A stretch of DNA of 64,000 nucleotides from an uncultured Gammaproteobacteria bacterium (GTDB lineage: Bacteria; Patescibacteriota; Patescibacteriia; UBA9934), in NCBI GenBank assembly GCA_964552565.1, contig CAZKGL010000001.1, positions 307,061 to 371,060 on the forward strand. The letters run 5' to 3'. Under the pieces are notes generated by a model. It saw only the letters and a program-made list of their open reading frames with translations. It made no database searches and was not told the origin of the DNA. Positions 3,825 through 46,206 of this stretch are shown here, piece after piece. The position numbers and the translations under genes are program-made. Within the stretch, counting starts at the first letter, position 1, and each line of letters begins with the position of its first letter.

Positions 3825-5328
3825 GGCCGAGACGCTCTACCGCAAATACCGCCCACAGACCTTTGCCGATGTCGCCGAGCAGGACCATGTCCGGCGTACC
3901 GTCGAGAACCAGCTGAAGACCGACACGGTCGCGCACGCGTACCTCTTTTCGGGTCCGCGCGGCGTCGGCAAGACGACGATTGCCCGTCTCCTCGCAAAGG
4001 CGGTGAACTGTACCGGACGCGCCGCGGGGCAGAGCGAGCCGTGTAATGCGTGCTCGCATTGCGCCGACTTCGCCGCAGGGAGGTTTTTGGACGCCATCGA
4101 GATCGACGCGGCGTCGCACACCGGCGTCGACAACGTCCGCGAAAACGTCATCGAGAACGTCCGTTTTGTCCCGCAGCGGGGCAAGTACAAGGTCTTCATC
4201 ATCGACGAAGTGCACATGCTCTCGACGAGCGCGTTCAACGCGCTCCTGAAAACGCTCGAGGAACCGCCGGCGCACGTCATGTTCATTTTCGCCACGACCG
4301 AACTCCACAAGATTCCCGCGACCATTGTCTCGCGCTGCCAGCGGTTTGATTTCCACCGTATCCCGGCGGACGAGATGGTGGGGCGCCTCGGCCGTATTGC
4401 AAAGGCGGAGGGCGTCACCGTCGACGAGGACGTGCTGCGCACCATCGCGAAGCTCCCGGAGGGCTGCCTGCGCGACGCGGAGAGCCTGTTCGGCCAGGTC
4501 TTGTCCGTCGGCGGGCCGCAGATCACCGCGGAGTCGGCGTCGGCCGTGTTGCCGATGACGACCATCGCGCTTGTGCGGGACCTTCTCGAGTGCGTGGTCG
4601 TGAAGGACATGCCGGGCATCATCGCCAAGCTCACGGCCTTTGTTGACGAGGGCGGATCGGTGAAACAGCTGCACGATGAGCTGATTGAGGAGGCGCGCGA
4701 CGTCATGTGCGCGGCGATCGAGGGGAAGGAGGCGGCGGTTGACGCGGCCTCGGCGCGCCGCCTGCTCGACCTGTTGCTTGCTGCGCGGAACCGCCCGTCG
4801 CTCGCCATCCTTCCGCAGCTGCCGCTTGAACTGGCATTGGTCGAATTTGTGCTTGGCAATCCGTCGGCCCCTGCCACGCCCTCCGCACCGCCTCCGGCCC
4901 CTCCCAGGGGAGGAGGGGAGCCGCGCGGGCTTGTCGGGCCGCGTCCTGCACAGCCCCCACACCATCCCACCACCCCACCATCCACCAACGACACGACGCC
5001 GTCCGGCGCGCTCTCTTTTACGCTTGACGATATCCAGAACAAGTGGGAGCGATGCTGCGACTATGTCGCGGACCGGAACGTGGCGCTGCCGCTCGTGCTG
5101 CGCGCCGGCAAGCCGATGACGGTCGAGGGGAACCGCGTGACGATCGGCTTCGCGTACGGGTTCCACGCCGACGCCTGCAAGGAACAGAAAAACATCCGCC
5201 TTATCGAAGACGCGGTCGCGGCGGTCATGATGGAGCGGCCGATCGTCGGCGTCGCGGTGTTGCCGCAAACGAACACCGACCCGCTCGGCGACCTTGCGGC
5301 CGCGTTCGGCGGATCGGTGGTGGGCTAG
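3823..5328 (+). CDS. dnaX: DNA polymerase III subunit gamma/tau
   Basis: N-terminus YRPQTFADVAEQDHV...AYLFSGPRGVGKTTIARLLAKAVNC, then the CxxC zinc module and the DEVHML box. A Pro-rich linker contains a copy of the CCACCATC-type repeat. Confidence 0.9.
   Translation: MAETLYRKYRPQTFADVAEQDHVRRTVENQLKTDTVAHAYLFSGPRGVGKTTIARLLAKAVNCTGRAAGQSEPCNACSHCADFAAGRFLDAIEIDAASHTGVDNVRENVIENVRFVPQRGKYKVFIIDEVHMLSTSAFNALLKTLEEPPAHVMFIFATTELHKIPATIVSRCQRFDFHRIPADEMVGRLGRIAKAEGVTVDEDVLRTIAKLPEGCLRDAESLFGQVLSVGGPQITAESASAVLPMTTIALVRDLLECVVVKDMPGIIAKLTAFVDEGGSVKQLHDELIEEARDVMCAAIEGKEAAVDAASARRLLDLLLAARNRPSLAILPQLPLELALVEFVLGNPSAPATPSAPPPAPPRGGGEPRGLVGPRPAQPPHHPTTPPSTNDTTPSGALSFTLDDIQNKWERCCDYVADRNVALPLVLRAGKPMTVEGNRVTIGFAYGFHADACKEQKNIRLIEDAVAAVMMERPIVGVAVLPQTNTDPLGDLAAAFGGSVVG
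4957..4987. repeat. In-frame oligo-repeat CCACACCATCCCACCACCCCACCATCCACC (CCACCATC-type), copy 1, inside dnaX. It encodes PPHHPTTPPST.
   Basis: Shares the (CCACCATC)n core with 38644-38675 and 45415-45447. Confidence 0.6.
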
Positions 5329-5681
5329 TCGTTCAGGCCGAGGAGCACTTGCGCCTTGGCGATGTCGTCGTAAATTTTTTTGCGCATGACCTCTTCCGAT
5401 TCCCAGGGGATGAGGTCGCTGACCTTGTCGCCGATTTCGACGGCGAGCGTTTCTCCCATGAGCTCAAGGTCGGCGTTGAGGATGTGTACTTCGAATTTCT
5501 TGAGCCCGTCCGCGCCGTAGCAGATGATGGACGGGAGCGCGGTGCCTTTGTAGCTTGTCCGTCCGATGTACACGCCCGCGGGAATGCCAAGCGGCGCCTC
5601 GAGCGCGAGGTTTGCGGTAGGGGTGCCGAACATTTTTCCGGCGAGCCCCTGGCCTCTGACGACGGTCCCCCGGACGATCAT
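5325..5681 (-). CDS. Riboflavin kinase, stand-alone RibF C-terminal-type domain
   Basis: VVRGQGLAGKMFGTPTANL matches the riboflavin-kinase GxGRG..FPTAN motif. 118 aa, overlapping the ribH stop. Confidence 0.65.
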   Translation of the reverse strand: MIVRGTVVRGQGLAGKMFGTPTANLALEAPLGIPAGVYIGRTSYKGTALPSIICYGADGLKKFEVHILNADLELMGETLAVEIGDKVSDLIPWESEEVMRKKIYDDIAKAQVLLGLND

Positions 5682-6136
5682 AGGTCAAGCGTTGCCATTT
5701 CGAGCGCGACGTGCGCGGCTTCTGCGCCGCGGTTCATGGGCCCATCCCCTGCGCGTTCCTCCGCCTGCGCCTTGTCATTGACGGTCAGGACGCCGGCGAC
5801 GACCGGGAGGTTGTGGCCGATGGCGATGTCCTTCATGCCGTCGTACACCGCATGCGCGAGGTACTCGTCATGTTTCGTTGCGCCCTTGATGATGGCTCCT
5901 AGACAAATAATAGCATGGTACCGTTCGGCCGACGCCAGCATGTTCGCCGCATGGATGATTTCGAACGACCCGGGGACCTCGACGACACGGATACGATCGT
6001 CCGTGACGCCGCTGTCGCGAAGTACCTGGAGCGCCCCGTCGAGCAGTCCCTGGGTGATGGCATCGTTGAACCGTGCCCGGACGATGGCGACGCGGAGTCC
6101 GCCCCCGTCGACCGCGCGGAAGGTGTTGTGGTCCAT
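5678..6136 (-). CDS. ribH: 6,7-dimethyl-8-ribityllumazine synthase
   Basis: RVAIVRARFNDAITQGLLDGA...VVEVPGSFEI...GAIIKGATKH is typical lumazine synthase. Confidence 0.85.
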   Translation of the reverse strand: MDHNTFRAVDGGGLRVAIVRARFNDAITQGLLDGALQVLRDSGVTDDRIRVVEVPGSFEIIHAANMLASAERYHAIICLGAIIKGATKHDEYLAHAVYDGMKDIAIGHNLPVVAGVLTVNDKAQAEERAGDGPMNRGAEAAHVALEMATLDL

Positions 6137-6196
6137 AGTGGAGCAAGCGTAGGCGAAGCGCTTGGATATTGCAACGTCAGCAGTCCGGTTGACGGA

Positions 6197-6225
6197 TTGA
6201 CGCGGTCGGCCGGAAATGCTATTCT
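6197..6225 (+). promoter_or_regulatory. Putative sigma70-type promoter for tRNA-Gln: TTGACG-N17-TATTCT
   Basis: Hexamers 17 nt apart; the -10 ends about 20 nt before the tRNA 5' end. Confidence 0.4.
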
Positions 6226-6245
6226 CAGGCCGAAAATTGAACTCC

Positions 6246-6319
6246 TCCGGGATCGTCTAACGGCAGGACAACGGACTCTGAATCCGTTTATCTTGGTTCG
6301 AATCCAAGTCCCGGAACCA
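6246..6319 (+). tRNA. tRNA-Gln (anticodon CUG), CCA encoded
   Basis: Acceptor TCCGGGA/TCCCGGA, anticodon arm ACGGA-CTCTGAA-TCCGT, T-loop TTCGAAT, discriminator A plus CCA. Confidence 0.85.
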
Positions 6320-6321
6320 CG

Positions 6322-6350
6322 AAAAAACAACGGCAAACCCGTTGTTTTTT
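6322..6350 (+). terminator. Rho-independent terminator after tRNA-Gln
   Basis: AAAAAACAACGG-caaa-CCGTTGTTTTTT hairpin followed by a T-run. Confidence 0.7.
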
Positions 6351-6453
6351 CGTGCCACGTGGTCGGAGGAACCATGTCCGACGACTTTACGTGGCTGTAT
6401 TATTGCCGTTGTTCTCGTGGCAGGCCGCCGTTTTGATAGAATAGTTCCGACAT

Positions 6454-6912
6454 ATGAAAACGTACCTCCTCCTCGCTCTTATCGTGCTTTTGCTCCTCGG
6501 CCTGGTTGCGTGGTTTTTCCGCCCCGAGCTTCCGACGACCGACGTCGTCCTCGCCGACGATGTTGCGCTGTATATCCCCGACCAGCGGGCGGGCGGCCAG
6601 CTTGTCGGCGCGGTCGTGTCGACGCCGTCCGGCGGGTTCGTCATCGTGCATGAGCGTACCGAGGCCGGCGCCGGGGCGATTATCGGGGGGACAGGACTGC
6701 TGCCGCCCGGCCGGGTCGACGCGTTCGCCATCCCCCTCGAGCGGGACGCAGCGGACGGGGAGTGGCTGTACGCCATGTTGTACGCCGATACGGACGGCAA
6801 CGGGGACTTTACGGCCGGGGCGGACCAGCCCATGCGCGACAGTGCCGGCGCCACGGTGTACGGCATTCTCCAGACGCGGTCCGACCTCCCGAAATATCGC
6901 GCCAGGGAATAG
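6454..6912 (+). CDS. Hypothetical exported or membrane-anchored protein
   Basis: N-terminal hydrophobic segment LLLALIVLLLLGLVAWFF. The antisense ORFs here look GC-driven. Confidence 0.45.
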   Translation: MKTYLLLALIVLLLLGLVAWFFRPELPTTDVVLADDVALYIPDQRAGGQLVGAVVSTPSGGFVIVHERTEAGAGAIIGGTGLLPPGRVDAFAIPLERDAADGEWLYAMLYADTDGNGDFTAGADQPMRDSAGATVYGILQTRSDLPKYRARE

Positions 6913-7050
6913 GGGGTTCGGATTGGGTGGCCGTGTCAGTAGTACGCCTGACACGTGGCGGCGGTGGGGCAGCTATCCACAGGCCCCGCGTCTCTTGCAA
7001 AAACTTTGGGAGGTTATACTATAACGGCCACGTAATTCATATCACGCACT

Positions 7051-7230
7051 ATGAACACCGCAATCGCGACGGAACTCGAACTCAACGTACTCACCCCGGT
7101 GGCAATGGATCCGGATGAGGACGCGGGCGACGACATGGCCGATGATGATGAGGACGAGGAAGAGGCTGAAGGTGAGGAAGGCGATGAAGATGAGGAAGAG
7201 GCTGAAGGTGAGGAAGGCGACGACATGTAA
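7051..7230 (+). CDS. Small (59 aa), extremely acidic protein with the duplicated motif DEEEAEGEEGD
   Basis: My own translation is MNTAIATELELNVLTPVAMDPDEDAGDDMADDDEDEEEAEGEEGDEDEEEAEGEEGDDM. It is below the ORF-track size cutoff, has a putative TTGCAA-N16-TACTAT promoter upstream, and a hairpin terminator immediately downstream. Confidence 0.4.
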   Translation: MNTAIATELELNVLTPVAMDPDEDAGDDMADDDEDEEEAEGEEGDEDEEEAEGEEGDDM

Positions 7231-7233
7231 ATA

Positions 7234-7265
7234 AAATAGCGCGGCCATGCGGCCGTGCTATTTTA
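7234..7265. terminator. Bidirectional hairpin terminator between the convergent small acidic gene and dus
   Basis: AAATAGCGCGGCC-atgc-GGCCGTGCTATTTT. Confidence 0.55.
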
Positions 7266-8330
7266 TTTCCCCATCAACACCGCGGGGCGGAAGGTGAGGG
7301 TGTCGTTTGCGTCATGGTCGTCCTCGAACTGTTGGAAGATCGCTTCAAGTTCCTCCGGCGTCGCCGCTTTCATCATCGCGTCCTTGTACTTTTTCATTTG
7401 TGGCATCCCCTTGAAGTACCACGACAAGTGTTTGCGGAACGTCGGGACGGAGTTGGGCCCGTACTGCTCGAGATGCAGCGCGAGATGGCGGCGCACCACG
7501 CGCATGCGTTCGCCGAACGTCACCGGCGTCGGCGTCTTACCCGCGAGCACCTCGTTGATCTGCGTGAAGATCCACGGGTTGCCGAGCGCGCCGCGGGCGA
7601 TGAGCACGCCGTCTGCGCCGCTCTGCTTGAGTGCGTCGGCGACTTTCTCGGCCGTGTGGATGTCGCCATTCACGAGGACGGGAATGCGCACCGCCTTTTT
7701 CACTTCACCGACCTTCTTCCAGTCCGCAACGCCGCTGTAGCCCTGGCACTTCGTCCGGCCGTGGACGGTCAGCAGGTCGGCGCCGGCGTCCTCGAGCGTC
7801 TTGGCGAACGCGACGCAATCGTTTGGGTCTTCCCAGCCCAAGCGGATTTTCACCGACAAGGGGACGCTGATTGCTGCCTTCATCGCTTGTACGATGTCTG
7901 CGGCAAGTGCCGGCTGCTGCATGAGCGCGGCGCCGTTGAAGCTGTGGACGATCTTGTACACGGGGCAGCCCATGTTGATGTCGAACCCTTCGGGGCAGTG
8001 CTCGGCCTCGATGATGCGCGCCGCCTCTGCCATCGTCGTCGGGTCGCTGCCGAACACCTGTTGCACGAGCGGGCGCTCGTCAGCATGGATCTCCGTCATG
8101 CCGAGCGTCTTGTCGTTCCCGCGCACGACCGCCTCTGCCGAGACCATTTCGCGGAACACAATAGGGTTCGCGATCTCTTTGACGATGCGGCAAAAGGCAG
8201 AGTCCGTCATGTCAGCCATCGGGGAGAGGGCGACAATCGGGCGCGGCAGGGTGTTCCAGTCGAGTGCGGGCACAAGACGATGAGTATAGCCGGTTTTCGC
8301 ATCGCCGACAAGGTGGTACGATGTCCGCAT
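7263..8330 (-). CDS. tRNA-dihydrouridine synthase. The ORF is open back to 8510, but the family N-terminus begins near 8330.
   Basis: PIVALSPMADMTDSAFCRI...VFGSDP...NMGCP...KIRLGWED...HGRT...VNGDI are Dus family motifs. Confidence 0.85.
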   Translation of the reverse strand: MRTSYHLVGDAKTGYTHRLVPALDWNTLPRPIVALSPMADMTDSAFCRIVKEIANPIVFREMVSAEAVVRGNDKTLGMTEIHADERPLVQQVFGSDPTTMAEAARIIEAEHCPEGFDINMGCPVYKIVHSFNGAALMQQPALAADIVQAMKAAISVPLSVKIRLGWEDPNDCVAFAKTLEDAGADLLTVHGRTKCQGYSGVADWKKVGEVKKAVRIPVLVNGDIHTAEKVADALKQSGADGVLIARGALGNPWIFTQINEVLAGKTPTPVTFGERMRVVRRHLALHLEQYGPNSVPTFRKHLSWYFKGMPQMKKYKDAMMKAATPEELEAIFQQFEDDHDANDTLTFRPAVLMGK

Positions 8331-14053: not shown

Positions 14054-15187
14054 TCATGCCTTGCGCTGCAATGCCGCAACGAGCTCGACGTGCGGGGTGT
14101 GCGGGAACATGTCGATGGCGCGCATGGCCTCGACGGTGTAGTGCTCCTTGAGCTGCACCATCTCGCGTGCGAAATTTTTGTAGTTGCAAGAAATGTACAC
14201 GATGCGCTCCGGCTTCGCGGCGATGACGTCAGCGAGCGCCTTGTCGTGCATGCCGCTGCGCGGCGGGTCGAGGATGACGACGTCCGCACCGATCCGCATC
14301 CAATCGAACTCTTCCGTCTTTGCGTCATGGAACTCGACGCCGACCGCATTCAGTTCCGCGTTCATGCGTGCATCCTTGATCGCCTCGGGGACGAGTTCGA
14401 CGCCGACCGTGCGCGCAGCGAGCGGTGCCATGGCGACCGCGAAGAAGCCCGTGCCGCAATACAGGTCGAGCAACGTCTTGTGGGAAAGGTCGCCGGCGAA
14501 TTCGCGCACCGTGTCCATGAGCGCGGGTGCAGCGTAGGAGTTCGTCTGGAAGAACGCATTCGGGGAGATGCGGTAGCGCACGCCGTTGATGACCTCGTGA
14601 ATGACGCCGTCGCCCGTAATGACGCGCAGTTCGTCGCCGAAGCTCACGTCGGTAATGGTGTGGTTGATTGCCCACACCACGGTTGTCGCCTTACTGATGT
14701 CGGCAAGGTCGCGGAGCGCGGCTTCGACCGCCTGTGCTTCAGCGGCATCTGCGGGCGCGCTTGTCACGATTGACACCATCGTCTCGCCAAGCGTCGTTGC
14801 ACGGATGACGGCGTAGCGCAGCAAGCCGGTGTGCGCCTTGCGGTCAAAATACGACAGTCCGCATGCCTGTGCCCATGCGCGGACGACCGTGAACAGTTCG
14901 TCGATCTTCTCATCGCCAAGGAAACAGGCGTGGTCGTCGATGACGCGCCACCACTTGCCCTTTTCGCGCAGCCCGACCGCGCCTTCGAAGTTGATGACGA
15001 AGTCCATGCGGTTGCGGTAGTGCTCCGTCTTCGGCGATGCCACGATGCCATCCACGCGAAGGTCGAGTTTTTTCAGCGCAAAGCTCCCGTTAATGTCGGA
15101 GAGTTTTTGCTTGAGCTGCTTGTCGTAGGGGATATGCGACCAGCCGCAGGAACCGCAGATGTCGGGTTTGGGGCAAGGGGAGGCCAT
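14054..15187 (-). CDS. 23S rRNA (uracil-5)-methyltransferase, RlmD/RumA/TrmA family
   Basis: N-terminal Cys cluster CGSCGWSH, SAM motif DLYCGTGFF, DPPRSG, and a C-terminal catalytic region. Confidence 0.8.
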   Translation of the reverse strand: MASPCPKPDICGSCGWSHIPYDKQLKQKLSDINGSFALKKLDLRVDGIVASPKTEHYRNRMDFVINFEGAVGLREKGKWWRVIDDHACFLGDEKIDELFTVVRAWAQACGLSYFDRKAHTGLLRYAVIRATTLGETMVSIVTSAPADAAEAQAVEAALRDLADISKATTVVWAINHTITDVSFGDELRVITGDGVIHEVINGVRYRISPNAFFQTNSYAAPALMDTVREFAGDLSHKTLLDLYCGTGFFAVAMAPLAARTVGVELVPEAIKDARMNAELNAVGVEFHDAKTEEFDWMRIGADVVILDPPRSGMHDKALADVIAAKPERIVYISCNYKNFAREMVQLKEHYTVEAMRAIDMFPHTPHVELVAALQRKA

Positions 15188-15678: not shown

Positions 15679-15688
15679 CCATCACATC

Positions 15689-15783
15689 GGCCGGGTCCTG
15701 CCGCCTTCGCACCCTGTTGGGTGCTCGACTCGTCGGACTCGTCTGCGCGCCCAAGCAGGGGACCTGCTCGGCGTCACCCGGCC
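15689..15783 (+). repeat. Interspersed long-hairpin repeat, copy B, ending 6 nt upstream of tRNA-Arg
   Basis: GGCCGGGTCCTGCCGCCTTCGCACCCTGTTGGG...CCCAAGCAGGGGACCTGCTCGGCGTCACCCGGCC. Termini GGCCGGG/CCCGGCC are complementary. Confidence 0.8.
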
Positions 15784-15789
15784 GTTTCC

Positions 15790-16639: not shown

Positions 16640-17557
16640 ATGCAGGCAATCGGAGGTATGCCGTCGACCACAGTCAAGGGGGAACTTTTTTCGTGGCAGC
16701 ACATCGTGCGGCCGAACGCGAAGGACGTCGCGTCCGTCGCCGAGGACTTTGCGTTAACGACCGCCGAGGCGGCATGGCTGCACCACGCGCCCGAGCTGCC
16801 GCGCCTCCTCGACCGCGGGCCATGGAACATGCTCACGCTCCATGTCCCGGGCTTCCTCATGAGTAAGCACGCCATGGAGCGGGCGACGCTCGTCCTCCTG
16901 TACGACAAGCGCCACGTGGTCACGCTGTGCGACAAGCCGCTCCCGATGCTCGCCGCGCTCGCCCCGAAAGGGAAGCGCAGGGCGCCGAAGCAGTTTGACC
17001 ATGGGACGTCCACGGATATCGTCGCGTGGATCCTTGGCGCGGTCTTCGAGGGCTTGCACGAGATCACCGACGACATGATGCGCGCCATCGAGCGCCTGGA
17101 ACGCGGCCTGCACCGCCGCCAGTCCGACGCGATGACGCGCGACCTCGGCCGTCTCCGCCGCGACATCCTCATGCTCGACCTCATGGTCGACCCAGCGCGC
17201 AGCGTCATCGAGGAGCTCCTGAAGACGCAGGAGCCGCACCGGTCGGAGGCGAGCGAACTCGCGCTCAGGCAGATCCGCGACCGCCTCCGCGGCATCCACG
17301 TCATCCTCGACCACTACAACAAACTCGTCGACGGTATTTTCCGCATGCACGAGACGCTGTTGTCGCACCACACCAACCGCGTCGTGCAGGCGCTCACCAT
17401 CATTTCCGTGCTCCTCATGCCGCCGACGCTCATCACGAGCTACTATGGCATGAACATCGCCGACCTTCCGCTTGCGCACGACTTCCGGATCGTTTCCCTC
17501 GGGCTCGTCGCGGTCGTCCTGCTCTTCTTGTTCTTGGTTCTGCGTATCCGCCGCTAG
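16640..17557 (+). CDS. corA: CorA-family Mg2+/Co2+ transporter
   Basis: C-terminal YGMNIADLP (GMN motif) with two C-terminal TM helices. The N-terminal ORF extension overlapping the GT2 gene is rejected. Confidence 0.7.
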   Translation: MQAIGGMPSTTVKGELFSWQHIVRPNAKDVASVAEDFALTTAEAAWLHHAPELPRLLDRGPWNMLTLHVPGFLMSKHAMERATLVLLYDKRHVVTLCDKPLPMLAALAPKGKRRAPKQFDHGTSTDIVAWILGAVFEGLHEITDDMMRAIERLERGLHRRQSDAMTRDLGRLRRDILMLDLMVDPARSVIEELLKTQEPHRSEASELALRQIRDRLRGIHVILDHYNKLVDGIFRMHETLLSHHTNRVVQALTIISVLLMPPTLITSYYGMNIADLPLAHDFRIVSLGLVAVVLLFLFLVLRIRR

Positions 17558-17559
17558 CT

Positions 17560-18141
17560 ATGTCCCGCCCCATCCCGGTCGAAATTATCCCGTCCCACGT
17601 CCACCTGTCCGAAGCGCACCACGCGGCGCTGTTCGGACCGACGCACGCGGCGACGATCGTCGAGAACCTGTCGCAGACGGGGCAGTTCGCGTATGCCGAG
17701 CGGGTCGAGGTGTACGGCAGGCTGAAACGCTCGGTGCCGCTGCGCGTCCTCGGCCCGTGCCGACGCACGACGCAGGTGGAACTCACGCCGACCGAGGCGC
17801 AGCTGCTTGGCCTCACGCCGCCTGTCGCGCGCTCCGGCGACATGTCGGAGGCGGTCGGGTGCCGCTTGGTCGGTCCGCACGGCGAGGTCGAGGCCGACGC
17901 CGTGGTCATCATCCCGAAGCCGCATCTGCATTGTTCCGACACCGAGGCGGCAAGCCTGCACGTCGTCAACGGCAAGACGGTGTCCGTGGAGGTCCTCGGC
18001 GATAACCCGTATGTGCTTGACGACGTCGTCGTCCGGGTCCACCCGAGCTACCGCCTGCGGCTCCACGTCCATCCCGACATCGCCCGGACGCATTGGATGA
18101 CCGGCGTTGTCCACGCCCGCATTCGCGACAAGGGGCTCTAG
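17560..18141 (+). CDS. PduL-type phosphate acyltransferase (phosphotransacylase)-like
   Basis: Two repeats of the PduL signature: IPVEIIPSHVHLSEAHHAALFG and VVIIPKPHLHCSDTEAASL. Confidence 0.65.
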   Translation: MSRPIPVEIIPSHVHLSEAHHAALFGPTHAATIVENLSQTGQFAYAERVEVYGRLKRSVPLRVLGPCRRTTQVELTPTEAQLLGLTPPVARSGDMSEAVGCRLVGPHGEVEADAVVIIPKPHLHCSDTEAASLHVVNGKTVSVEVLGDNPYVLDDVVVRVHPSYRLRLHVHPDIARTHWMTGVVHARIRDKGL

Positions 18142-23187: not shown

Positions 23188-23274
23188 GCGACGACAACGT
23201 CGCGCGTCCGGATACTCGGCACGAGGTTCTCCTCGCGCCGATCTCCGGCCGAATGGATCGACCGAGGAGGCACA

Positions 23275-23867: not shown

Positions 23868-23972
23868 GTGGCCCCGTCGCTCGCGAGCGACGGGGCGGGC
23901 CGGACGTCGAGATGAGGAAACGCCTCGTCTCGATCACCGGCCGAATCAACCAATCGGCCCCGGAGGTTGCCA

Positions 23973-24551: not shown

Positions 24552-24726
24552 CGCCGACGGACGACGAGCTGGACCTGTTCCCTGAACTTCGTGACGACCG
24601 CTAGCCAGTCGTCCTGCCGGATCCTCGGCATCACCGGTTCGCGGTGGTGCCAAGTCCCGGCCGAAGGTGTGCGGCGCGGGAATGTCCCCGCGCGGCATGC
24701 GTGACCACCGGCCAACGGAGGACGTC

Positions 24727-25014
24727 ATGATCGTCATGATGTTCGTAGCAATCCTCAGCGCACCGGTGCACGCCGCCGATGCGTTCGCGTCATGGCCGCC
24801 GCCTGAGCCGCCGCAGCAGGAGGACGAGTGTGCGGGCGAGCTCGCCGAGGCGAACGCCCGCATTGTCGAGCTCGAGGAGGCGCTCATCGACGCGGAATGC
24901 GACACGGTGCGTGACCGCTGGGTTTCCCGTGTGGAAGATATTGTCACTGGGCTCGTCGTGGCGGGCGTCCTTGGCGCGCTGGTCTGGCTCAAGCCGGACC
25001 ACACGGGTCGCTGA
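24727..25014 (+). CDS. Array gene 6: small secreted or bitopic protein (95 aa) with a signal peptide, coiled coil and C-terminal TM
   Basis: Leader ...CCACCGGCCAACGGAGGacgtcATG. Signal peptide MIVMMFVAILSAPVHAADA. Confidence 0.5.
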   Translation: MIVMMFVAILSAPVHAADAFASWPPPEPPQQEDECAGELAEANARIVELEEALIDAECDTVRDRWVSRVEDIVTGLVVAGVLGALVWLKPDHTGR

Positions 25015-25280: not shown

Positions 25281-25398
25281 TGTCGGACAGCCGGACGTCG
25301 AGATGAGGGAACGCCCTTGTCTCGATCACCGGCCGAAGGTGTGCGGCGCGGGAATGTCCCCGCGCGGCATGCGTGACCACCGGCCAACGGAGGCCACC

Positions 25399-25728
25399 AT
25401 GGGCATCGTCATCGTCACTCTTTCCGTTTCCGCTGCGTGGATCATCGGGCTGGCGGCGCTCCTCGGACTCATGGATCCATGGCCCCTCTTCTCCCGGAAC
25501 ATCCGAGAGTGGATGCTGGCCGCGGCTCCGGTCCCGCCCGTCCGCCCGATGTCGCCGATCGTGTCGCCTGCGCTCCTCATGATGTCCGGCATTGTGCTCA
25601 TCGCCGCATCGCTGCCCCTCGTCACTATGGAGTGGGGATGCCTTTCGAGGATCATCCTCATCATCATCGGAGGGGCGTTCGTCGCCACCGCGCTCACGCG
25701 GATCCACCGGTACTTCACGGTGGGCTAG
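25399..25728 (+). CDS. Array gene 8: small polytopic membrane protein (109 aa)
   Basis: Same CCGGCCGAAGGTGTGCGGCGCGGGAATGTCCCCGCGCGGCATGCGTGACCACCGGCCAACGGAGG leader as gene 6. Confidence 0.5.
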   Translation: MGIVIVTLSVSAAWIIGLAALLGLMDPWPLFSRNIREWMLAAAPVPPVRPMSPIVSPALLMMSGIVLIAASLPLVTMEWGCLSRIILIIIGGAFVATALTRIHRYFTVG

Positions 25729-25828
25729 CGGGAACGCCGTCCGGATACTCGGCACGAGGTTCTCCTCGCGCCGATCTCCGGCCGAACTGTTCGGTCCCGT
25801 TCCGTCCAACCCTGTCCCCGGAGGTTCC

Positions 25829-36776: not shown

Positions 36777-38243
36777 ATGTCTGCCCATCAAACGTTAGCG
36801 AAAAATACGCTGTTTTTGACTGCGGCCTCCATCGGGCAAAAGGTCATCGCGCTCGTGTACTTTTTCCTTATTTCCGGCTACCTCGGCACCGAGGGGACGG
36901 GCGGGTATTTTTTGGCGCTCGCGATGGTGACGACGATCGGCGTCATCGACGACATCGGGCTCACGTCGGTCCTCATCCGCGGCGTCGCAAGCAAACCCTC
37001 CGAAGCCGCGACGTGGCTGCGCAACGTCCTCGGGTACAAGGTATTCACCATCCCATTCACCATTCTTCTTGCATTCGTCGTCCCGGCGCTCGCCGGGTTT
37101 GATGCGGAAGCGGCGTACCTTGTCCGTATCGCCATCGCCATCATGATCGCGGATACGCTGTCGCTGACGTGCTACGGCGTCTTGCGCGGCATGCAGTCGC
37201 TCAAGTACGAGTCGCTCGGCATCTTCGTCGGCCAGCTCGTCACGAGCGTCATCGGCATTGGGCTTGTGGTGACCGGCACCGCGACGTTGCCGCTCCTCAT
37301 TGTCGCGCTCATCGTCGGGAGCGTGTGGAACCTCGTGTTCTCTGCGGTGCAGGTCGCGCGCTGCATCGGGTGGGGCGCCTTCGTGCCGGCGTACACCATG
37401 GGGAACGCGCCGCTGAAGATGGCGTTTGCATTTTTCCTTTCCGCCGTCTTCGTGAAGGTGTATTCGTACATGGATTCGTTCATCCTGAACGCGACGCTTG
37501 GCGAGTCGGCGGTCGGCGTGTACAGCATCGCGTACAAGATGACGTACGCATTTCAGTTTTTGCCGCTTGCGCTCGTCGGCGCGCTGTACCCGTCGCTGTC
37601 CGCCGCCGCGGGCGACCCGGAGCGGCTCAAAAAGATCTTTTTTGCCGCCGAATGGTACGTTGCGCTTCTCGCTGCGCCGATCGTCTTCGGCATCTGGTCG
37701 CTCGCGCCGGAACTCGTCGGGCTCCTCAAGCCCGAGTTCGCGGAGGCCGCCGGCCCGCTGTCCATCCTCATTTTCGTCCTCATCTTCATCTTCCTCGATT
37801 TTCCCATCGGGTCGCTCCTCAACGCGACGCATCGCCAGGCGACGAAGACGGTCATCATGGGCGCGACCATGGTCATCAACATCTGCGCGAACATCTACCT
37901 CATTCCGCGCTTCAACGTCGAAGGCGCGAGCATTGCCGCGCTGATCAGTTTCGTGTTCATGTTCGTTGCGGGGTGGGGGAGCGTCGCGGCGGCGGCCAAG
38001 CTGTCGTTCGCCGAGCTTGTGCAGAAGGTCGGTGGGTTTTTCCTCGCCGGCGCCGTCATGGGCGTCGTGGTCATCGCGGCGAAGGCGTATATCCCGTGGG
38101 TCTCCGCAATCCCGATCGGCGCCGCGGTGTATGTCGTCCTCATCTTTGCCATGAAGACCGTGACCGTCGACCACCTCCGCCAGATGCGCAGCATCGTACG
38201 CCCCGAAAAACCGTATGCCACGAATACTTCTGCCGACAATTGA
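36777..38243 (+). CDS. Polysaccharide/oligosaccharide flippase (Wzx/MOP superfamily)
   Basis: 12-14 TM protein with a polysaccharide-biosynthesis-protein-like N-terminus. Confidence 0.7.
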   Translation: MSAHQTLAKNTLFLTAASIGQKVIALVYFFLISGYLGTEGTGGYFLALAMVTTIGVIDDIGLTSVLIRGVASKPSEAATWLRNVLGYKVFTIPFTILLAFVVPALAGFDAEAAYLVRIAIAIMIADTLSLTCYGVLRGMQSLKYESLGIFVGQLVTSVIGIGLVVTGTATLPLLIVALIVGSVWNLVFSAVQVARCIGWGAFVPAYTMGNAPLKMAFAFFLSAVFVKVYSYMDSFILNATLGESAVGVYSIAYKMTYAFQFLPLALVGALYPSLSAAAGDPERLKKIFFAAEWYVALLAAPIVFGIWSLAPELVGLLKPEFAEAAGPLSILIFVLIFIFLDFPIGSLLNATHRQATKTVIMGATMVINICANIYLIPRFNVEGASIAALISFVFMFVAGWGSVAAAAKLSFAELVQKVGGFFLAGAVMGVVVIAAKAYIPWVSAIPIGAAVYVVLIFAMKTVTVDHLRQMRSIVRPEKPYATNTSADN

Positions 38244-39198
38244 GCTGCCTGGCGCACGGGGAGGCATTGCGCGGTACATCGACGCGATCGCGAAGACGAT
38301 TCCGGACGTTGAGGTTGCCCCGTGGTCGAAGAGCCGTAGCGTCGAGTCGAAAGGGTACGACGCCGTGTGGGTGCACCACGTGCTCCCCATCGGCACCCAG
38401 GCGTGGCTGCAGCGCCTTCGTGGCGGCACGCCGTACGTCGTGTTTTTGCATGGCATGGATTTCGATCTCGCCCGCCGCAATGTGTGGAAACGATTTCTCA
38501 CGCGTCGTATCTTGCGTGGTGCAACACGCGTGGTGACCAATTCGCGCGCACTCGCCGGCGAGGTTGCGGCGTTTGCGGACATCCCGATGCCGATGGTGGT
38601 GTACCCGTGCGTGAGCGACGATATGGTCGCAGCCGCAGCCATCCCACCATCCCACCATCCACCGTCCACCACACTCCGTCTCCTCACCGTCGGCCGGCTT
38701 GTCGAACGGAAGGGCCACATGAAGGTGCTCGACGCCATCGCGGACATGCCGGACGTGACGTACGCGATCGTCGGCGACGGGCCGATGCGGGGTGCGATCA
38801 CGCGGCGCATCGAGGAGCTCGGACTTCGCGACCGTGTGACGCTCCATGCGGATGTCGCGGACGATGCGCTGCCCGAGTATTATCGGAACGCTGATGTTTT
38901 TGTCATGCCCGCGTCGCAATCCGCGGGCGACCGCGAAGGGTTCGGCATCGTCTATCTCGAGGCAAACCTGTTCGGCCTTCCGGTCATCGCGTGCAAGACG
39001 CCCGGTGTCGACGAGGCGGTGGTTGATGGAGAGACGGGCGTGCTCATCGACGATACTCCCGTCGCGCTGCGTGACGCATTGTCGCGGTTTTCTCACGATC
39101 GTGAGTTTTCCGTGACGCTCGGACAGCAGGGCAGGGAGCGGGTATTGGCCGATTTCACACGCGAAACGCAGTTTGCTACACTGCGTGCTCTGCTATGA
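38215..39198 (+). CDS. Glycosyltransferase family 4 (GT-B); carries the in-frame CCACCATC repeat in its inter-domain linker
   Basis: C-terminal domain motifs RLLTVGRLVERKG...EGFGIVYLEANLFGLPVIA. Confidence 0.75.
   Translation: MPRILLPTIELPGARGGIARYIDAIAKTIPDVEVAPWSKSRSVESKGYDAVWVHHVLPIGTQAWLQRLRGGTPYVVFLHGMDFDLARRNVWKRFLTRRILRGATRVVTNSRALAGEVAAFADIPMPMVVYPCVSDDMVAAAAIPPSHHPPSTTLRLLTVGRLVERKGHMKVLDAIADMPDVTYAIVGDGPMRGAITRRIEELGLRDRVTLHADVADDALPEYYRNADVFVMPASQSAGDREGFGIVYLEANLFGLPVIACKTPGVDEAVVDGETGVLIDDTPVALRDALSRFSHDREFSVTLGQQGRERVLADFTRETQFATLRALL
38644..38675. repeat. In-frame repeat CCATCCCACCATCCCACCATCCACCGTCCACC, copy 2, inside GT4; encodes IPPSHHPPST
   Basis: Near-identical to the fmt copy, but read in a different frame. 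Confidence 0.7.
39088..39112. repeat. Palindromic element, copy 2 (TTTTCTCACGATCGTGAGTTTTCCG), here inside the GT4 coding sequence (encodes SHDREFS)
   Basis: Identical 25-mer to 10568-10592, with similar flanks (GTCGCGG...CCGTGAC). Confidence 0.7.
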
Positions 39199-40801: not shown

Positions 40802-42394
40802 ATGTTCGCAAAACAGTTTCTCGGAAAAACCGCTGCGGTCACGTTTCCCGCGCTCGCCGCGGTCCATCTGGTCGCGATTCCGCTCCAGCACAACGACCTT
40901 CCGAGCGCCGTCGCGCTCGCGCTCGTCGGCGTGGCCGCGTGCGCCCTCACCGCACGGTCCCTCGTGTGGGGCCTTGTCCTTGCGTTCGCCGAAATCATAG
41001 CCGGCGGCCACGGCCACCTGCTCGCCGCGGACATCGCCGGGTTCCCGCTGTCGCTGCGCATGGCCGTGTTCGCCGGTGTCATGCTGGGCTACGTCTGGCA
41101 CGTCGCGCGCCGCCGCGTCCGGCCGACCTTCCTCGTCTTCCGCGACACGCCGTTCTTGCTCCTTGCCATCGCGGTCGCCATCGGGACCGTACACGGGATG
41201 CTCGCGAACGACCCGCTCCATGCGTTCGACGACATGAACGGTTACTTCACGCTCGCGTACCTCCTGCCGCTCGCGTCGGTGGCGTGGGACAACACGACGC
41301 GCCGCGCGCTGCTCCAAGGGATGTTCGCGTCGGTCATGTGGGTTGCGCTCTCGACGCTTGCCATCGTGTTCCTTTTCACGCACCTGCCGGGCTGGATGCT
41401 GCATGATGTCTACGCGTTCGTGCGGGATGCGCGCATCGCCGAGGTGACGCTCCTCACCGGTCCGGATTGGTTTGTCGGCAACCTCCTGCCCGACGCGAGT
41501 CCGTGGTATTTCCGCGTGTTCGAGCCCGCGCATTTCTTCGTCCTCGTGCTCGGCCTCATCTTGGTGGCGGCGCGGTTCCTCTTGTGGAAAGGGGAGCGGA
41601 TGCCCCACATGGCGCGCGTGGCGTTCACGCTTTGTGTTGCCGCGTTCATCGCCAGCCTCTCGCGGAGTTTCCTTATCGGCGCGGCCGCCGGGCTCTGCGC
41701 GACCGCGGTGTTCGTCGGGGTCGACGCGCCGCGCGCCATCGGCAGGCACCTGCTCCGCAGCCTCCCGCTCCTGTTCTTGGTATTCCTCGGCGCCGGCGTG
41801 TTCTGGGCCACGGTCGTTTTCCCGTTCCCAAGCCACCCGAACCTGCAGGACGCGGCGTTTTACCGTGAGACGGAAAGCGACGACCGGGACCTTGCGGTCT
41901 CCAGCCGGTGGAACCTCTTGTACCCGATGTTTACGGCGATCATGGAGCACCCCGTAGTCGGGGCCGGCTTCGGCAAAGAGGTCACGTTCATCTCTGACGA
42001 CCCGCGGGTCCGCGACATCAACCCGAGCGGGGAGTGGACCACGTATCGGTTCGAGTGGGGCTACCAGGATATCTGGCTCAAGATGGGGCTCCTCGGCCTG
42101 GTCGCGTTCGTGTGGTACCTCGTCGTGTTGTCACGCGCGTTTTACTTCAGTTACCTTCGCCACGGGCACCGCTGGCTGGTGACCGGGCTCTACGCCGGCG
42201 TCATCGCGCTCTTCGCCACGCACGTGTTCTCGCCGTACCTCAACCATCCCATCGGCCTCGGCTTCATGCTGTTCGTGCTGCCGTTCTTCGATTGGCAGGG
42301 CGTCGTCGCGTCGTTTGCGAAAGAGGACGAGGCCCGCGCGAAAGAATCGGTCGTGAAGGTACCGACGCCGGTCGTGACGATGCGCGGCGAGTGA
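40802..42394 (+). CDS. O-antigen ligase / Wzy_C-domain polytopic membrane protein
   Basis: About 12 TM helices and a periplasmic loop with the FSRSFLIGAAAG region typical of the family. Confidence 0.5.
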   Translation: MFAKQFLGKTAAVTFPALAAVHLVAIPLQHNDLPSAVALALVGVAACALTARSLVWGLVLAFAEIIAGGHGHLLAADIAGFPLSLRMAVFAGVMLGYVWHVARRRVRPTFLVFRDTPFLLLAIAVAIGTVHGMLANDPLHAFDDMNGYFTLAYLLPLASVAWDNTTRRALLQGMFASVMWVALSTLAIVFLFTHLPGWMLHDVYAFVRDARIAEVTLLTGPDWFVGNLLPDASPWYFRVFEPAHFFVLVLGLILVAARFLLWKGERMPHMARVAFTLCVAAFIASLSRSFLIGAAAGLCATAVFVGVDAPRAIGRHLLRSLPLLFLVFLGAGVFWATVVFPFPSHPNLQDAAFYRETESDDRDLAVSSRWNLLYPMFTAIMEHPVVGAGFGKEVTFISDDPRVRDINPSGEWTTYRFEWGYQDIWLKMGLLGLVAFVWYLVVLSRAFYFSYLRHGHRWLVTGLYAGVIALFATHVFSPYLNHPIGLGFMLFVLPFFDWQGVVASFAKEDEARAKESVVKVPTPVVTMRGE

Positions 42395-42425
42395 TGCCTC
42401 GCGTCCGTTCTGCTATACTCCTGCT

Positions 42426-44192
42426 ATGTCATTGTCCGTCCGCCCGACGATCCGGGTATTTTGGCGGCATGTGCGGCGGTACCCGGTCGTTGCGGCATTC
42501 CTGGCCGTCGCCTTGCTCGCGCTCAACCTGACTGAGCTTGCGCGGCCGCTGCTCGGCAAGCGGTTTTTTGACGTGTTCGAGTCGGGCCTTTCCGGCGGCG
42601 CGCTGCAGTCCGCCCTGGTTGACGTGCTCGTGCTCATGATCGGGCTCGGCGTCGTGCAGTTCTTGCTGTTCCGCGTCGCAAGCTTCATGAACAACTGGTT
42701 CCAGCCGCGGGTCATCGCCGACCTCGAGCGCACGGCGTTCGGATACATCCTCGACCATTCGTACCGGTTCTTCTCGAATAACTTCGCCGGTTCGTTGGTC
42801 CGGAAAATTCACCGCCTCGGACGCGCGTTCGAGACGATCGCCGACCAGCTCGAGTGGCGGCTTATCCAGCTTGTCGTCGCCATCGTCGGGACGATCATCA
42901 TTTTTTCCCTCCGCAGCCCGCTCGTCGCCGCCATCCTTGCGGCGTGGATCGTCATCTTCATCGCCGTGAACTTCGTCGTGGCGCGGTGGAAGCTCAAATA
43001 CGACACGGAGCGCGCGGAGCTCGACACGGAGGCGGGCGGCATGCTTTCCGACGCGGTGTCGAACGCGATGACCATCCAGCAGTTCGTCGGCAAGGACTTC
43101 GAACGGGCGCGTTACGCGGAGGTCAGCGAGCGCTGGCGTGTCATGCAGACGTTTACGTGGAACCTTGGCGACATCAACGAAGCGATCCAGGCCGCGCTCA
43201 TGATCGTGCTCGAGGGCGTCACGATGTACTTCGCCATCCAGTTCTACATCGACGGCACGCTGACGCTCGGCGATTTCGCGCTGATCCAGACGGCGTTCAT
43301 CGGGCTCTTCACCAAGCTTTGGGATTTCGGCCGCGTCATCCGCCACACGTACGAAGGGTTTGCCGATGCGAAAGAAATGGTCGATATCCTCGAGCTGCCG
43401 CACGAGGTCCACGACAAGCCCACGGCAAAAAAACTCAAGGTCAAACACGGGCAGATCGAGTTTGTCGACGTGTCGTTCGCGTACAACATGACGCGGCCGG
43501 TGTTGCGCGACCTCTCGCTCACCATCACGCCGGGGGAGAAGATCGCGTTTGTCGGCCCGAGCGGTGCGGGCAAATCCACGGTCATCAAACTCCTCATGCG
43601 GTTCTTCGACGTCACAAGCGGGAAGATCCGCATCGACGGACAGAATATCGCCGACGTGACGCAGGACAGCGTGCGCGGCAACGTCTCGCTCGTCCCGCAG
43701 GACCCGCTGCTGTTCCACCGCAGCATCATGGAAAACATCCGCTACGGCCGGCGCACCGCGTCCGACGCCGAGGTCATTGCGGCGTCGAAGAAGGCGCACT
43801 GTCACGAGTTCATCACGCAGCTGCCGAGCGGCTACGACACGCTCGTCGGCGAACGCGGCATTAAGCTCTCCGGCGGCGAACGCCAGCGCGTCGCCATCGC
43901 GCGCGCCATCCTGAAGAACGCCCCGATCCTCGTCCTCGACGAGGCGACGTCGAGCCTCGATTCGGAAAGCGAAGCGTTGATCCAGGACGCCCTGCGCGCG
44001 CTCATGAAGGACAAGACCGTCATCGTCATCGCGCACCGCCTGTCGACCATCATGCAAATGGACCGGATTGTGGTTATCGAAAAGGGGGCGGTGACGGACG
44101 CGGGGCGACACGACGAGCTCGTGCGTCGAGAGGGGACATACCAAAAATTGTGGAGCATTCAGGCCGGGGGTTTTCTGCCAGATAAAGCATAA
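42426..44192 (+). CDS. ABC exporter, fused permease-ATPase (MsbA-like)
   Basis: Six-TM domain, then Walker A GPSGAGKST, signature LSGGERQR and Walker B ILVLDEATS. Confidence 0.85.
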   Translation: MSLSVRPTIRVFWRHVRRYPVVAAFLAVALLALNLTELARPLLGKRFFDVFESGLSGGALQSALVDVLVLMIGLGVVQFLLFRVASFMNNWFQPRVIADLERTAFGYILDHSYRFFSNNFAGSLVRKIHRLGRAFETIADQLEWRLIQLVVAIVGTIIIFSLRSPLVAAILAAWIVIFIAVNFVVARWKLKYDTERAELDTEAGGMLSDAVSNAMTIQQFVGKDFERARYAEVSERWRVMQTFTWNLGDINEAIQAALMIVLEGVTMYFAIQFYIDGTLTLGDFALIQTAFIGLFTKLWDFGRVIRHTYEGFADAKEMVDILELPHEVHDKPTAKKLKVKHGQIEFVDVSFAYNMTRPVLRDLSLTITPGEKIAFVGPSGAGKSTVIKLLMRFFDVTSGKIRIDGQNIADVTQDSVRGNVSLVPQDPLLFHRSIMENIRYGRRTASDAEVIAASKKAHCHEFITQLPSGYDTLVGERGIKLSGGERQRVAIARAILKNAPILVLDEATSSLDSESEALIQDALRALMKDKTVIVIAHRLSTIMQMDRIVVIEKGAVTDAGRHDELVRREGTYQKLWSIQAGGFLPDKA

Positions 44193-44283
44193 TTTTGGCA
44201 TTTCGGCTTGACTCGACCGTACTCCGGTGCTCACATGGGCTTGCACGCCGCCTTGGGGGGCGGAGTGCGCATAAGGGGGGACA

Positions 44284-44913
44284 ATGCTCAAGTTGGTCAG
44301 CGAACACCCGCAGGCGTTCCTGACGCTCTTCACCATCGTGTGCATCATGGCACTCGTGCTCCTGGCGGTCACCGGCGGGCTGCTCTACGAGTGGAACTCC
44401 ACGCGCGCGACGCTGAAGGACCGCGTGGAAGAGGTCGCGAACCTCCACACGCTGATGGAACAGGGGAAGGCGGCCGCGGACGGCGCGATTGCGGAGGCGC
44501 ACGCGTCCGATGCCGCGAAGCTCGAGGCCGAAGCGCGGGTGCGCGACAAGGAGCACGAGCGGCGGCGCCTCGACGGCTACGTCGACGGCATCCTCCTCGC
44601 GTTCCATACGGCCCGAAGCGTGCTCGGCGAGCGCGACTTCGCGCCGTTCGTGCGGCTGCTCTCGCACTGGGCGGTGGAGGAGGCCAAGCTCCAGAACATC
44701 CGCGGCCGCGACCGGTTCGTGGACCACGCCCTGCGCGTCGCGTGCGAGGAGCACCTCGTGACGCCGGAGATCCTCGCGGAGCTCCCTCCGGAGGTCATCG
44801 AGCGGACGGTTCGGCACCGTATCCGCGACCTGCAGAAGCACGGGGCCCAGGGGTGGGCGATCGTCGAGCACGCGCTCGCGTTGCCGGACGAAGAGCGCCC
44901 CGCGGCGAAATAG
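44284..44913 (+). CDS. Hypothetical membrane-anchored protein
   Basis: N-terminal TM, then a charged helical region. Confidence 0.4.
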   Translation: MLKLVSEHPQAFLTLFTIVCIMALVLLAVTGGLLYEWNSTRATLKDRVEEVANLHTLMEQGKAAADGAIAEAHASDAAKLEAEARVRDKEHERRRLDGYVDGILLAFHTARSVLGERDFAPFVRLLSHWAVEEAKLQNIRGRDRFVDHALRVACEEHLVTPEILAELPPEVIERTVRHRIRDLQKHGAQGWAIVEHALALPDEERPAAK

Positions 44914-44930
44914 GGGCGAAAAAGGGAGGC

Positions 44931-44972
44931 GTACCTGGGTGCTGGCTCGTGCCGCGCCCAGGTCGTTTTTTT
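44931..44972. terminator. Hairpin ACCTGGG...CCCAGGT followed by T8
   Basis: Read directly. Confidence 0.55.
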
Positions 44973-45037
44973 CTACGAAGATGCACCGCCCTTGTGAGGC
45001 GGTGCATGGGGACGGAACCAGCGTCCGTCGAGCGCGG

Positions 45038-45244
45038 TCATGACATGAATTCCGCGAGGTAGTTGCCGGCGAGGGTGATGAAGAGCACCACGGACACGAA
45101 GACGAGGCTCCGCATCCGCGCGCGCTCGGCGCCGGCCATGTCATGGGGATCGCGCGCCGTGCCGCGCTCGAATTCCGAAATGAGCCACAGGGCGATGCCG
45201 ATGAGGAACAGGCATCCGAGCACGACGTTGGCGAGCCAGGGCAT
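45038..45244 (-). CDS. Small two-TM membrane protein (68 aa) downstream of fmt
   Basis: GGAGGTG lies 5 nt upstream of the ATG at 45244. The longer ORF to 45517 is rejected. Confidence 0.45.
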   Translation of the reverse strand: MPWLANVVLGCLFLIGIALWLISEFERGTARDPHDMAGAERARMRSLVFVSVVLFITLAGNYLAEFMS

Positions 45245-45264
45245 GGGGCACCTCCGCCACCAGG

Positions 45265-46206
45265 CTACACGCCGAGCTCCGCGTTGGCAATGTCGGCGTA
45301 GCCGCGCAGGAAGGCATCGGCGGGCATGCGCGTGCCGCCTGCGGGCTGGATCGCAAGAATGCGCAGCGCGGTCGAGCCCGTGCCGACGTACAGCGATCCG
45401 TTTTCGACAAGTACGGTGGACGGTGGGATGGTGGGATGGTGGGATGGCGACGCAGCGAAAATTTTCAGCGTCATCGGCTGCCCATTCCGGTTCCATGTCG
45501 TCCACGTCCCGGGCCAAGGGTTATACGCGCGGATCTTCCGCTCGATGACTTCGGCCGGTTCGGCCCAGTCGATTTTTCCGTCTTCGCGGGTGAGGAGCGC
45601 ACAGAATGTCGCTTGAGTGTGATCTTGCGCTCTGGGCGTGGCTGTCCCCGCCGCGAGCTGTTTGAGCGTATCGAGAAGAAGCGGCGCGCCGTGCGCAACG
45701 ACTTTTTCCGTGAGGCTCGATGTCGTTTCGTCGGATACGACCGGGAACGTCGTTTGCGCAAGCACGGGGCCATGGTCCATCTCTGCATCAAGCAGCATGA
45801 GGGAAACGCCGGTTTCGGTTTCCCCATTCGCGATCGCGGAAATAATCGGCGACGGACCACGAAGTTTCGGCAGGAGCGAGGGGTGGACGTTGACACAGCC
45901 CATCGGCGGGATGTCGAGGACGGCCTGCGGGAGAATGCGGCCGTAGGCGATGACGACAAACGCATCCGCATCGAACGCGCGCAGCGTGTCATGGAATGCG
46001 GGATCCTTCAGCTTTGTGGGCTGGAGCACGGGGATGCCGAGGCTCATTGCCCTCGTCTTGACCGGCGACGGCGTCAGCTCCTTCTTTCTTCCGACCGGTT
46101 CATCCGACGTGGTGATCACTGCCGCAATTTCGAAAAACGGATCCGCATGGAGCGCGGAAAGGAATTGCCCGGCGAATTCCGGCGTACCAAAGAAAACGAG
46201 CTTCAT
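45265..46206 (-). CDS. fmt: Methionyl-tRNA formyltransferase
   Basis: MKLVFFGTPEFA...SLLPKLRGPSPI. Contains copy 3 of the in-frame repeat (SPSHHPTIPPST). Confidence 0.9.
   Translation of the reverse strand: MKLVFFGTPEFAGQFLSALHADPFFEIAAVITTSDEPVGRKKELTPSPVKTRAMSLGIPVLQPTKLKDPAFHDTLRAFDADAFVVIAYGRILPQAVLDIPPMGCVNVHPSLLPKLRGPSPIISAIANGETETGVSLMLLDAEMDHGPVLAQTTFPVVSDETTSSLTEKVVAHGAPLLLDTLKQLAAGTATPRAQDHTQATFCALLTREDGKIDWAEPAEVIERKIRAYNPWPGTWTTWNRNGQPMTLKIFAASPSHHPTIPPSTVLVENGSLYVGTGSTALRILAIQPAGGTRMPADAFLRGYADIANAELGV
45415..45447. repeat. In-frame repeat GGTGGACGGTGGGATGGTGGGATGGTGGGATGG (plus strand), copy 3, inside fmt
   Basis: The reverse complement CCATCCCACCATCCCACCATCCCACCGTCCACC matches the GT4 copy. 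Confidence 0.7.

Follow-up and report, generated by a model that had tools for sequence, protein, structure and literature searches.

A C-rich octamer tract shared by dnaX, a GT4 glycosyltransferase gene and fmt in an uncultured Patescibacteriota genome

How does nearly the same run of nucleotides come to lie inside the coding sequences of three unrelated genes? The question is raised by a 64-kb window (the whole stretch of DNA analyzed, 7.6% of a genome of ~0.84 Mb) of contig CAZKGL010000001.1 from an uncultured Patescibacteriota bacterium, in which dnaX, a glycosyltransferase gene of the GT4 type (GT4 below) and fmt each contain a C-rich tract of ~30-40 nucleotides (nt) overall, made of 8-nt units (CCCACCAT / CCACCRTC), some of them 7 nt. 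A first-pass annotation had read these copies as one small element inserted in-frame into each gene. Comparison of the copies with each other and with the orthologues of their hosts leads us to favor, with moderate confidence, another explanation: a repeat native to the GT4 linker was copied by short-patch replacement into tolerant loops of fmt and dnaX.

Three copies of one octamer tract

The presence of the tract in all three genes was confirmed, and so was the earlier observation that the host open reading frames (ORFs) are intact. The dnaX copy lies at 4957-4986 on the forward strand (CCACACCATCCCACCACCCCACCATCCACC) and codes for PHHPTTPPST inside QPPHHPTTPPST (residues 377-388 of the 501-aa product of 3823-5328, forward strand, DnaX by Pfam). 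The GT4 copy, at 38639-38670 on the forward strand, reads CCATCCCACC ATCCCACC ATCCACC GTCCACC and codes for IPPSHHPPST (residues 143-152 of 327 aa; gene at 38215-39198, forward strand, assigned by Pfam). The fmt copy, at 45415-45447 on the reverse strand, reads CCATCCCACC ATCCCACC ATCCCACC GTCCACC on the coding strand and codes for PSHHPTIPPST (residues 254-264 of 313 aa; gene at 45265-46206, reverse strand, Fmt by Pfam). The core common to the three copies is 30-33 nt, and with flanks the similarity extends over at most 51 nt. Tandem Repeats Finder reported a period of 8 at the dnaX, GT4 and fmt sites with 2.6, 4.4 and 3.8 copies, respectively, so the tract has the head-to-tail short units that are a feature of slipped-strand coding tandem repeats.

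Searches of the window with the 18-mer CCCACCATCCCACCATCC, allowing up to 3 mismatches, gave 7 overlapping matches, only at the three tract sites, against 0.06 expected, and the joint pattern CCACCAYCCN{0,1}ACCRTCCACC gave 4 matches against 0.00 expected. A period-8 scan of both window strands returned nothing beyond the three sites, and seven relatives (L240-L249), covered by ~80 kb of syntenic DNA, yielded no other tract copy. Contig scans with CCATCCCACCAYCCCACC in genomes and with the joint pattern in metagenomes hit more than 117 contigs from unrelated phyla, and diverse genomes, more than 117 of them, contain the same kind of 18-mer, as do many metagenome contigs. On its own, the motif is thus common low complexity of the CCACC type and not a lineage marker. 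All three copies are on the sense strand of their host gene, which at n = 3 is not statistically significant and can be explained by the antisense peptide (GGMVGWWDG) suiting a loop less well.

The nucleotide alignments are most informative for the origin of the copies. The extended fmt stretch (45409-45459, reverse strand, 51 nt, codons F250-L266) aligns end to end with that of GT4 (38626-38676, forward strand, 51 nt, codons V138-L154) with 43 identities, one +1 and one -1 indel. The fmt and dnaX copies align without gaps and in the same frame, with 24/26 nt identical, and their similarity reaches 5' as far as position 4946. In codons, the dnaX copy is CCT GCA CAG CCC CCA CAC CAT CCC ACC ACC CCA CCA TCC ACC (peptide PAQPPHHPTTPPST), the fmt copy is GCT GCG TCG CCA TCC CAC CAT CCC ACC ATC CCA CCG TCC ACC (peptide AASPSHHPTIPPST) and the GT4 copy is GCC GCA GCC ATC CCA CCA TCC CAC CAT CCA CCG TCC ACC (peptide AAAIPPSHHPPST). 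The eight codons common to fmt and GT4 (CCA TCC CAC CAT; CCA CCG TCC ACC) are identical, and the probability of choosing them independently is 5e-5 to 2e-4 under the codon usage of the window, in which CCA makes up 17% of Pro and TCC 24% of Ser codons. Identical synonymous codons point to copying at the DNA level rather than to convergent selection on a peptide, which supports the preference of the first-pass annotation for a nucleotide-level process. Additionally, all three copies close with the same shortened 7-nt unit (..TCC-ACC), and fmt and GT4 have 23 + 10 identical bases in common, including the A-to-G variant unit CCACCGTC.

The reading frames of the copies had been taken as a further argument for insertion, on the view that the peptides differ because the frame differs. 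This does not hold for the set as a whole, since fmt and dnaX share one frame and only the central block of GT4 is offset by one base relative to both, the +1 and -1 indels of the fmt-GT4 alignment flanking this shift. Whichever sense frame is read, a pure 8-nt array codes for one and the same cyclic peptide (PTIPPSHH), and the octamer repeat has no stop codon in any of the six frames. With an 8-nt unit any register shift changes the frame, and even inside one copy successive units take up each of the three frames in turn, so that the frame carries little information. The apparent use of different reading frames is therefore largely an artefact of the 8-nt period, and frame-independent reuse loses its weight as evidence of insertion.

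Assembly artefact is ruled out as a source of the tracts, as three assemblies agree. The fmt and GT4 tracts are base-identical in the window, in the metagenome-assembled genome (MAG) GCA_016177675.1 and in the independent Logan assembly of SRR12113420, and the DnaX and GT4 proteins of the MAG match the window exactly at the motif. The Fmt protein record MBI1908094.1 is from Candidatus Uhrbacteria (Patescibacteria/Candidate Phyla Radiation, CPR). Over 18.9 kb, the window and MAG contig JACOUU010000014.1 are 99.97% identical, with 5 single-nucleotide polymorphisms and one 99-nt indel, and none of the differences falls within the tracts. No repeat-number polymorphism was seen among the window, MAG and Logan assemblies, a weak test given that these are ~99.97% identical. 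The 99-nt segment (54148-54246) is present in the window and missing from the MAG contig; it lies near the 5' end of a ClpB-like gene, and either an indel between strains or a difference in assembly could explain it.

Host sites and their orthologues

All three copies fall in inter-domain linkers or loops, as the first-pass annotation had noted; this follows from Pfam domain limits and, for Fmt, from coil in a structural model. In GT4, the N- and C-terminal Rossmann-like domains (Pfam 42-132 and 145-309) are joined by a linker that contains the tract (residues 142-152), and the segment flanked by VxAA and LRLLTV is as long as in 24 orthologues. Though this linker is otherwise unconserved in most orthologues, six GT4 homologues have [SQ][HN][HY]P at the tract site. 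The linker of homologue P0123 reads AASHHPQPPPS (GCC GCC TCT CAC CAC CCC CAG CCC CCT CCC TCG), and those of P0124, P0122 and P0174 read QHHPRP, QNHPQP and SNHPPSP, respectively. The closest parallel is P0132 (locus L246), with the linker TILPSHYPLIP, whose DNA, ACT ATC CTC CCA TCC CAC TAT CCT CTC ATC CCA CTT, resolves into (ATCCTCYC ATCCCACT)x2, with 8/16-nt periodicity and the same codons; read off the alignment, 17/21 bases match the window over ATC..CC. The tract thus appears, on these alignments, to be native (ancestral) to the GT4 linker.

The same linker shows a second kind of repeat in another relative. In L244 (GCA_040960315.1), the linker of the GT4 gene (16996-18018, reverse strand) consists of two tandem 14-nt copies of GACTTTAGACGTGA, unrelated to the octamer and translated in two frames (DFRRE / TLDVR), so a non-triplet repeat again forms the linker. 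This indicates that slippage readily occurs in the GT4 linker. One of the mechanisms offered by the first-pass annotation, expansion of an octamer by slipped strands, fits the GT4 copy; a related repeat or slippage product at the orthologous site was seen for GT4 only (L246 and L244). In L243, the relative carrying P0003, the place expected for GT4 (14108-15052) is occupied by a 314-aa gene called on the other strand and without a Pfam match, which may be a miscalled or degraded GT4.

In Fmt, the tract occupies the loop of a beta-hairpin in the C-terminal domain, where residues 255-263 form coil between two strands in the AlphaFold model (mean predicted local distance difference test score 95). 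The motif was found at this loop site in 0/119 other Fmt homologues. In an alignment of 27 Fmt proteins, KIFAASPSHHPTIPPSTVLVENG pairs with KIFSAEIS-DVVLKPGFVAIENG, and the 51-nt stretch stands where orthologues have A-E-I-S-D-V-V-L-K-P-G-F or similar, a net change of +3 nt. At the codon level, the loop has 13 codons (ASPSHHPTIPPST) against 12 in the three nearest orthologues (e.g., AEISDV-VLKPGF), and the protein has 313 aa against 311-312 aa in its nearest relatives. Part of the loop is older than the tract: T-[LI]-P-P is ancestral in Fmt, encoded as ACC CTT CCG CCA in L244 and as ACC ATC CCA CCG in the window. The loop Gly of most Fmt orthologues is Ser in the window Fmt, and because this takes three base changes (GGA to TCC), overwriting of a patch fits better than gradual point mutation.

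In DnaX, the tract (residues 378-388) lies between the match to the lid domain (186-231) and DnaX_C (399-470) by Pfam. Both the sequence and the length of the Pro-rich linker ahead of the C-terminal domain are hypervariable among 15 aligned relatives. With 501 aa the protein is among the shortest DnaX homologues, which span 495-656 aa, and HHP..PPS was found in 0/150 DnaX representatives. Directly upstream of dnaX lies an 845-aa ORF (1265-3802, forward strand) with weak matches to TrwB_AAD_bind, T4SS-DNA_transf and DUF87, domains of the type IV secretion coupling protein and HerA-like ATPase types.

At the protein level, the tract is specific to this lineage in Fmt and DnaX. The proposal of lineage-specific insertions accordingly divides: relatives carry the same peptide in GT4, where it is ancestral, and the motif is lineage-specific in the other two hosts. 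The idea that the tract was inserted in-frame finds no support in the lengths, as Fmt has gained one codon, the GT4 linker has equal length and the DnaX linker is among the shortest. Nor are Fmt and DnaX conserved proteins bearing unusual inserts, as had been thought, since the sites vary throughout the orthologues and the hosts are not longer.

Proposed copying by replacement and its rivals

The explanation we favor would see the tract as a short coding tandem repeat of 3-4 units, specifying a flexible Pro/Ser/His/Thr peptide that may have no function of its own. In GT4, an ancestral stretch coding for S-H-H-P-P-S (TCC CAC CAT CC...) would have become an octamer array by slipped-strand duplication. 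The fmt copy, 6.7 kb off and in opposite orientation, and the dnaX copy would have been made through DNA copying and not by transposition, with a patch of ~40-50 nt overwriting a loop or linker of equal length. The route may have been non-allelic short-patch gene conversion or replication template switching, perhaps anchored by existing microhomology in the form of GCN GCN Ala codons upstream of the tract and CCN CCN Pro codons inside it; the upstream GCN GCN (Ala-Ala) codons are ancestral in both GT4 and fmt. The copies would have been kept since their sites are unconstrained surface segments.

Two findings are those expected of conversion by replacement: the tract is native in orthologues of the donor, GT4, and missing from homologues of the recipients, Fmt and DnaX, and the length of the recipient is conserved (fmt loop of 13 versus 12 codons). 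As in ectopic short-patch gene conversion or template switching, ~40-50 nt in fmt match a tract native to a nearby gene, and a resident sequence of equal length has been replaced between boundaries of short pre-existing similarity. The case departs from such events in that donor and recipient are not paralogues, the flanking homology is only a few bases and three loci are involved, one of them ~34-40 kb away. We infer both the direction of copying and the mechanism; GT4 as donor and conversion or template switching as the route seem likely.

Several considerations weigh against this explanation. The flanking homology of ~7-10 nt falls short of what conversion of the RecA type normally requires, which means that template switching or another microhomology route must be invoked. 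The fmt copy is one full unit longer than its proposed GT4 donor, and the extra unit requires either further slippage or a third, unseen donor. The nearest relatives have only ~65-70% protein identity, too little to date the changes in fmt and dnaX or to orient them, and strictly an insertion followed by a compensating deletion could have taken place instead. Finally, with three copies in 7.6% of the genome, many more may exist, which would favor active dispersal over a handful of conversion events. On that view, which is speculative and to us rather unlikely, the three copies are a sample of a genome-wide family, perhaps of tens, of a ~40-nt sense-strand peptide cassette that spreads through unrelated housekeeping genes by homology-poor patch replacement of their loops and linkers.

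Slightly more doubtful is the possibility that each locus expanded independently by slippage, starting from similar Pro/His/Thr codons under a C-rich codon preference. A period-8 array is present at 3/3 sites, the GT4 linkers of relatives hold slippage products, the ancestral Fmt codons ACC CTT CCG CCA (T-L-P-P) already resemble ACC ATC CCA CCG, and 18-mers of this type occur in over 117 diverse genomes. The tract likewise resembles coding simple-sequence repeats formed by replication slippage (Lin & Kussell 2012, PMC3315296) in its head-to-tail short units inside an ORF, its structurally tolerant segment, its Pro/Ser/Thr-rich linker peptide and the other slippage products at the orthologous site of relatives. 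It differs from them in its non-triplet unit of 8 nt, a kind that essential genes normally lack in their interior, since a change of one unit shifts the frame, and in the recurrence of the same array with the same variant units in three unrelated genes of one genome. Separate origins are made improbable by the aberrant 7-nt terminal unit common to all copies and the variant CCACCGTC common to fmt and GT4, and an expansion of 8 or 16 nt should have made the loops longer, yet their lengths are conserved. The tract itself thus fits a coding simple-sequence repeat, and its copying between unrelated genes is the unusual part.

The comparison with Rickettsia palindromic elements (RPEs) made in the first-pass annotation implies a small mobile element, a ~30-nt peptide-coding cassette inserted as DNA irrespective of frame and surviving only in loops. 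We regard this as unlikely. RPEs are ~150 bp long and palindromic, and their net in-frame insertion adds residues to the host protein (PMC10969869). [quoted passage not shown] Against this, the tract has ~30-40 nt, far below the ~150 bp of RPEs (PMC10969869), is nowhere a net insertion and, in one host, GT4, is ancestral. Every copy is on the sense strand, and neither terminal inverted repeats nor target-site duplications are visible at the copies. A hairpin or palindrome was rejected, as predicted DNA folding energies were 0 to -1.1 kcal/mol for the C-rich strand and -3.4 kcal/mol for the G-rich strand, none better than shuffled sequences; the tract is unable to form a hairpin because it has almost no G.

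Selection could instead have recruited and kept a short linear peptide motif (..PSHHPT[IT]PPST..), such as a docking, modification or metal-binding site, and we consider this very unlikely. The sense-strand placement of all copies, their common P-P-S-T ending and the S-H-H-P core retained in several GT4 orthologues agree with it, though 3/3 on the sense strand is not significant and the GT4 linker is otherwise unconserved in most orthologues. The identical codons speak for recent DNA copying and not for convergence, the hosts are functionally unrelated cytoplasmic proteins, and the motif is missing from all other Fmt and DnaX homologues examined.

Least probable is a DNA-level signal, a G-quadruplex or Chi-like recombination hotspot, that promotes its own copying: the G-rich strand is the template strand at 3/3 sites, and its unit GATGGTGG is one base off the E. 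coli Chi site GCTGGTGG, but ViennaRNA with G-quadruplexes predicted only two-tetrad structures, with dnaX and GT4 energies not beyond those of shuffles and that of fmt ~1.3 standard deviations better, single octamers elsewhere in the window have no orientation bias, and no RecBCD/AddAB gene was seen in the window, though none was searched for. The G-quadruplex itself was rejected, as fmt and GT4 each have at most 3 GGG runs and only two-tetrad quadruplexes were predicted at any site. A replication-oriented signal modeled on the FtsK-orienting polar sequences is likewise disfavored, since a signal polarized with replication should hold one orientation over 6.7 kb; the GT4 and fmt copies, 6.7 kb apart, are opposite, each following its own gene.

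Other repeats and wider significance

The window holds further repeats besides the octamer tract. A dispersed intergenic repeat of ~100 nt occurs in four copies, at 323-432, 15688-15789 and 50730-50821 on the forward strand and at 46208-46309 on the reverse strand, with 81-96% identity to the 15688 copy. No Rfam family matched it, and it folds as a long hairpin, with -46.7 kcal/mol for the consensus and 2 compensatory pairs. One copy stops 1 nt ahead of a tRNA-Arg gene, and another occupies the entire def-fmt spacer, which has ~106 nt compared with 3, 34 and -4 nt in relatives, so this copy is a lineage-specific insertion. The repeat looks like a mobile element of the MITE or repetitive extragenic palindrome kind, or a structured leader.

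Direct repeats of 30-84 nt with 87-95% identity (23205-23260 and 25738-25793; 24657-24740 and 25329-25412; 23916-23945 and 25308-25337) lie within a 2.6-kb region and may be the repeated gene starts or leaders of neighboring paralogues. At 7147-7220, a GAG/GAA/GAT-rich coding tandem repeat has periods of 9, 18 and 36 nt nested within one another (at period 36 the match is 94%) and probably encodes an acidic low-complexity tail. A 152-nt direct repeat (59706-59857 and 59937-60088, 73% identity, 231 nt apart) lies inside ORF 58698-60128, which corresponds to the Trypsin_2-domain gene of the Logan contig.

The practical consequences of the tract are limited unless a genome-wide family exists. Such a cassette family, if true, would make this reduced CPR genome home to a replacement-type counterpart of the insertion-type Rickettsia palindromic elements. 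The tract also illustrates how repeat periodicity can give the false appearance of in-frame inserts in different frames. In the essential fmt and dnaX genes of a minimal genome, where the slip of one unit is a frameshift, a repeat with a non-triplet 8-nt unit is here tolerated. If the explanation we favor holds, the three genes would provide a small, clean case of a low-complexity linker that, rather than arising independently or being transposed, moves between unrelated genes by DNA copying.

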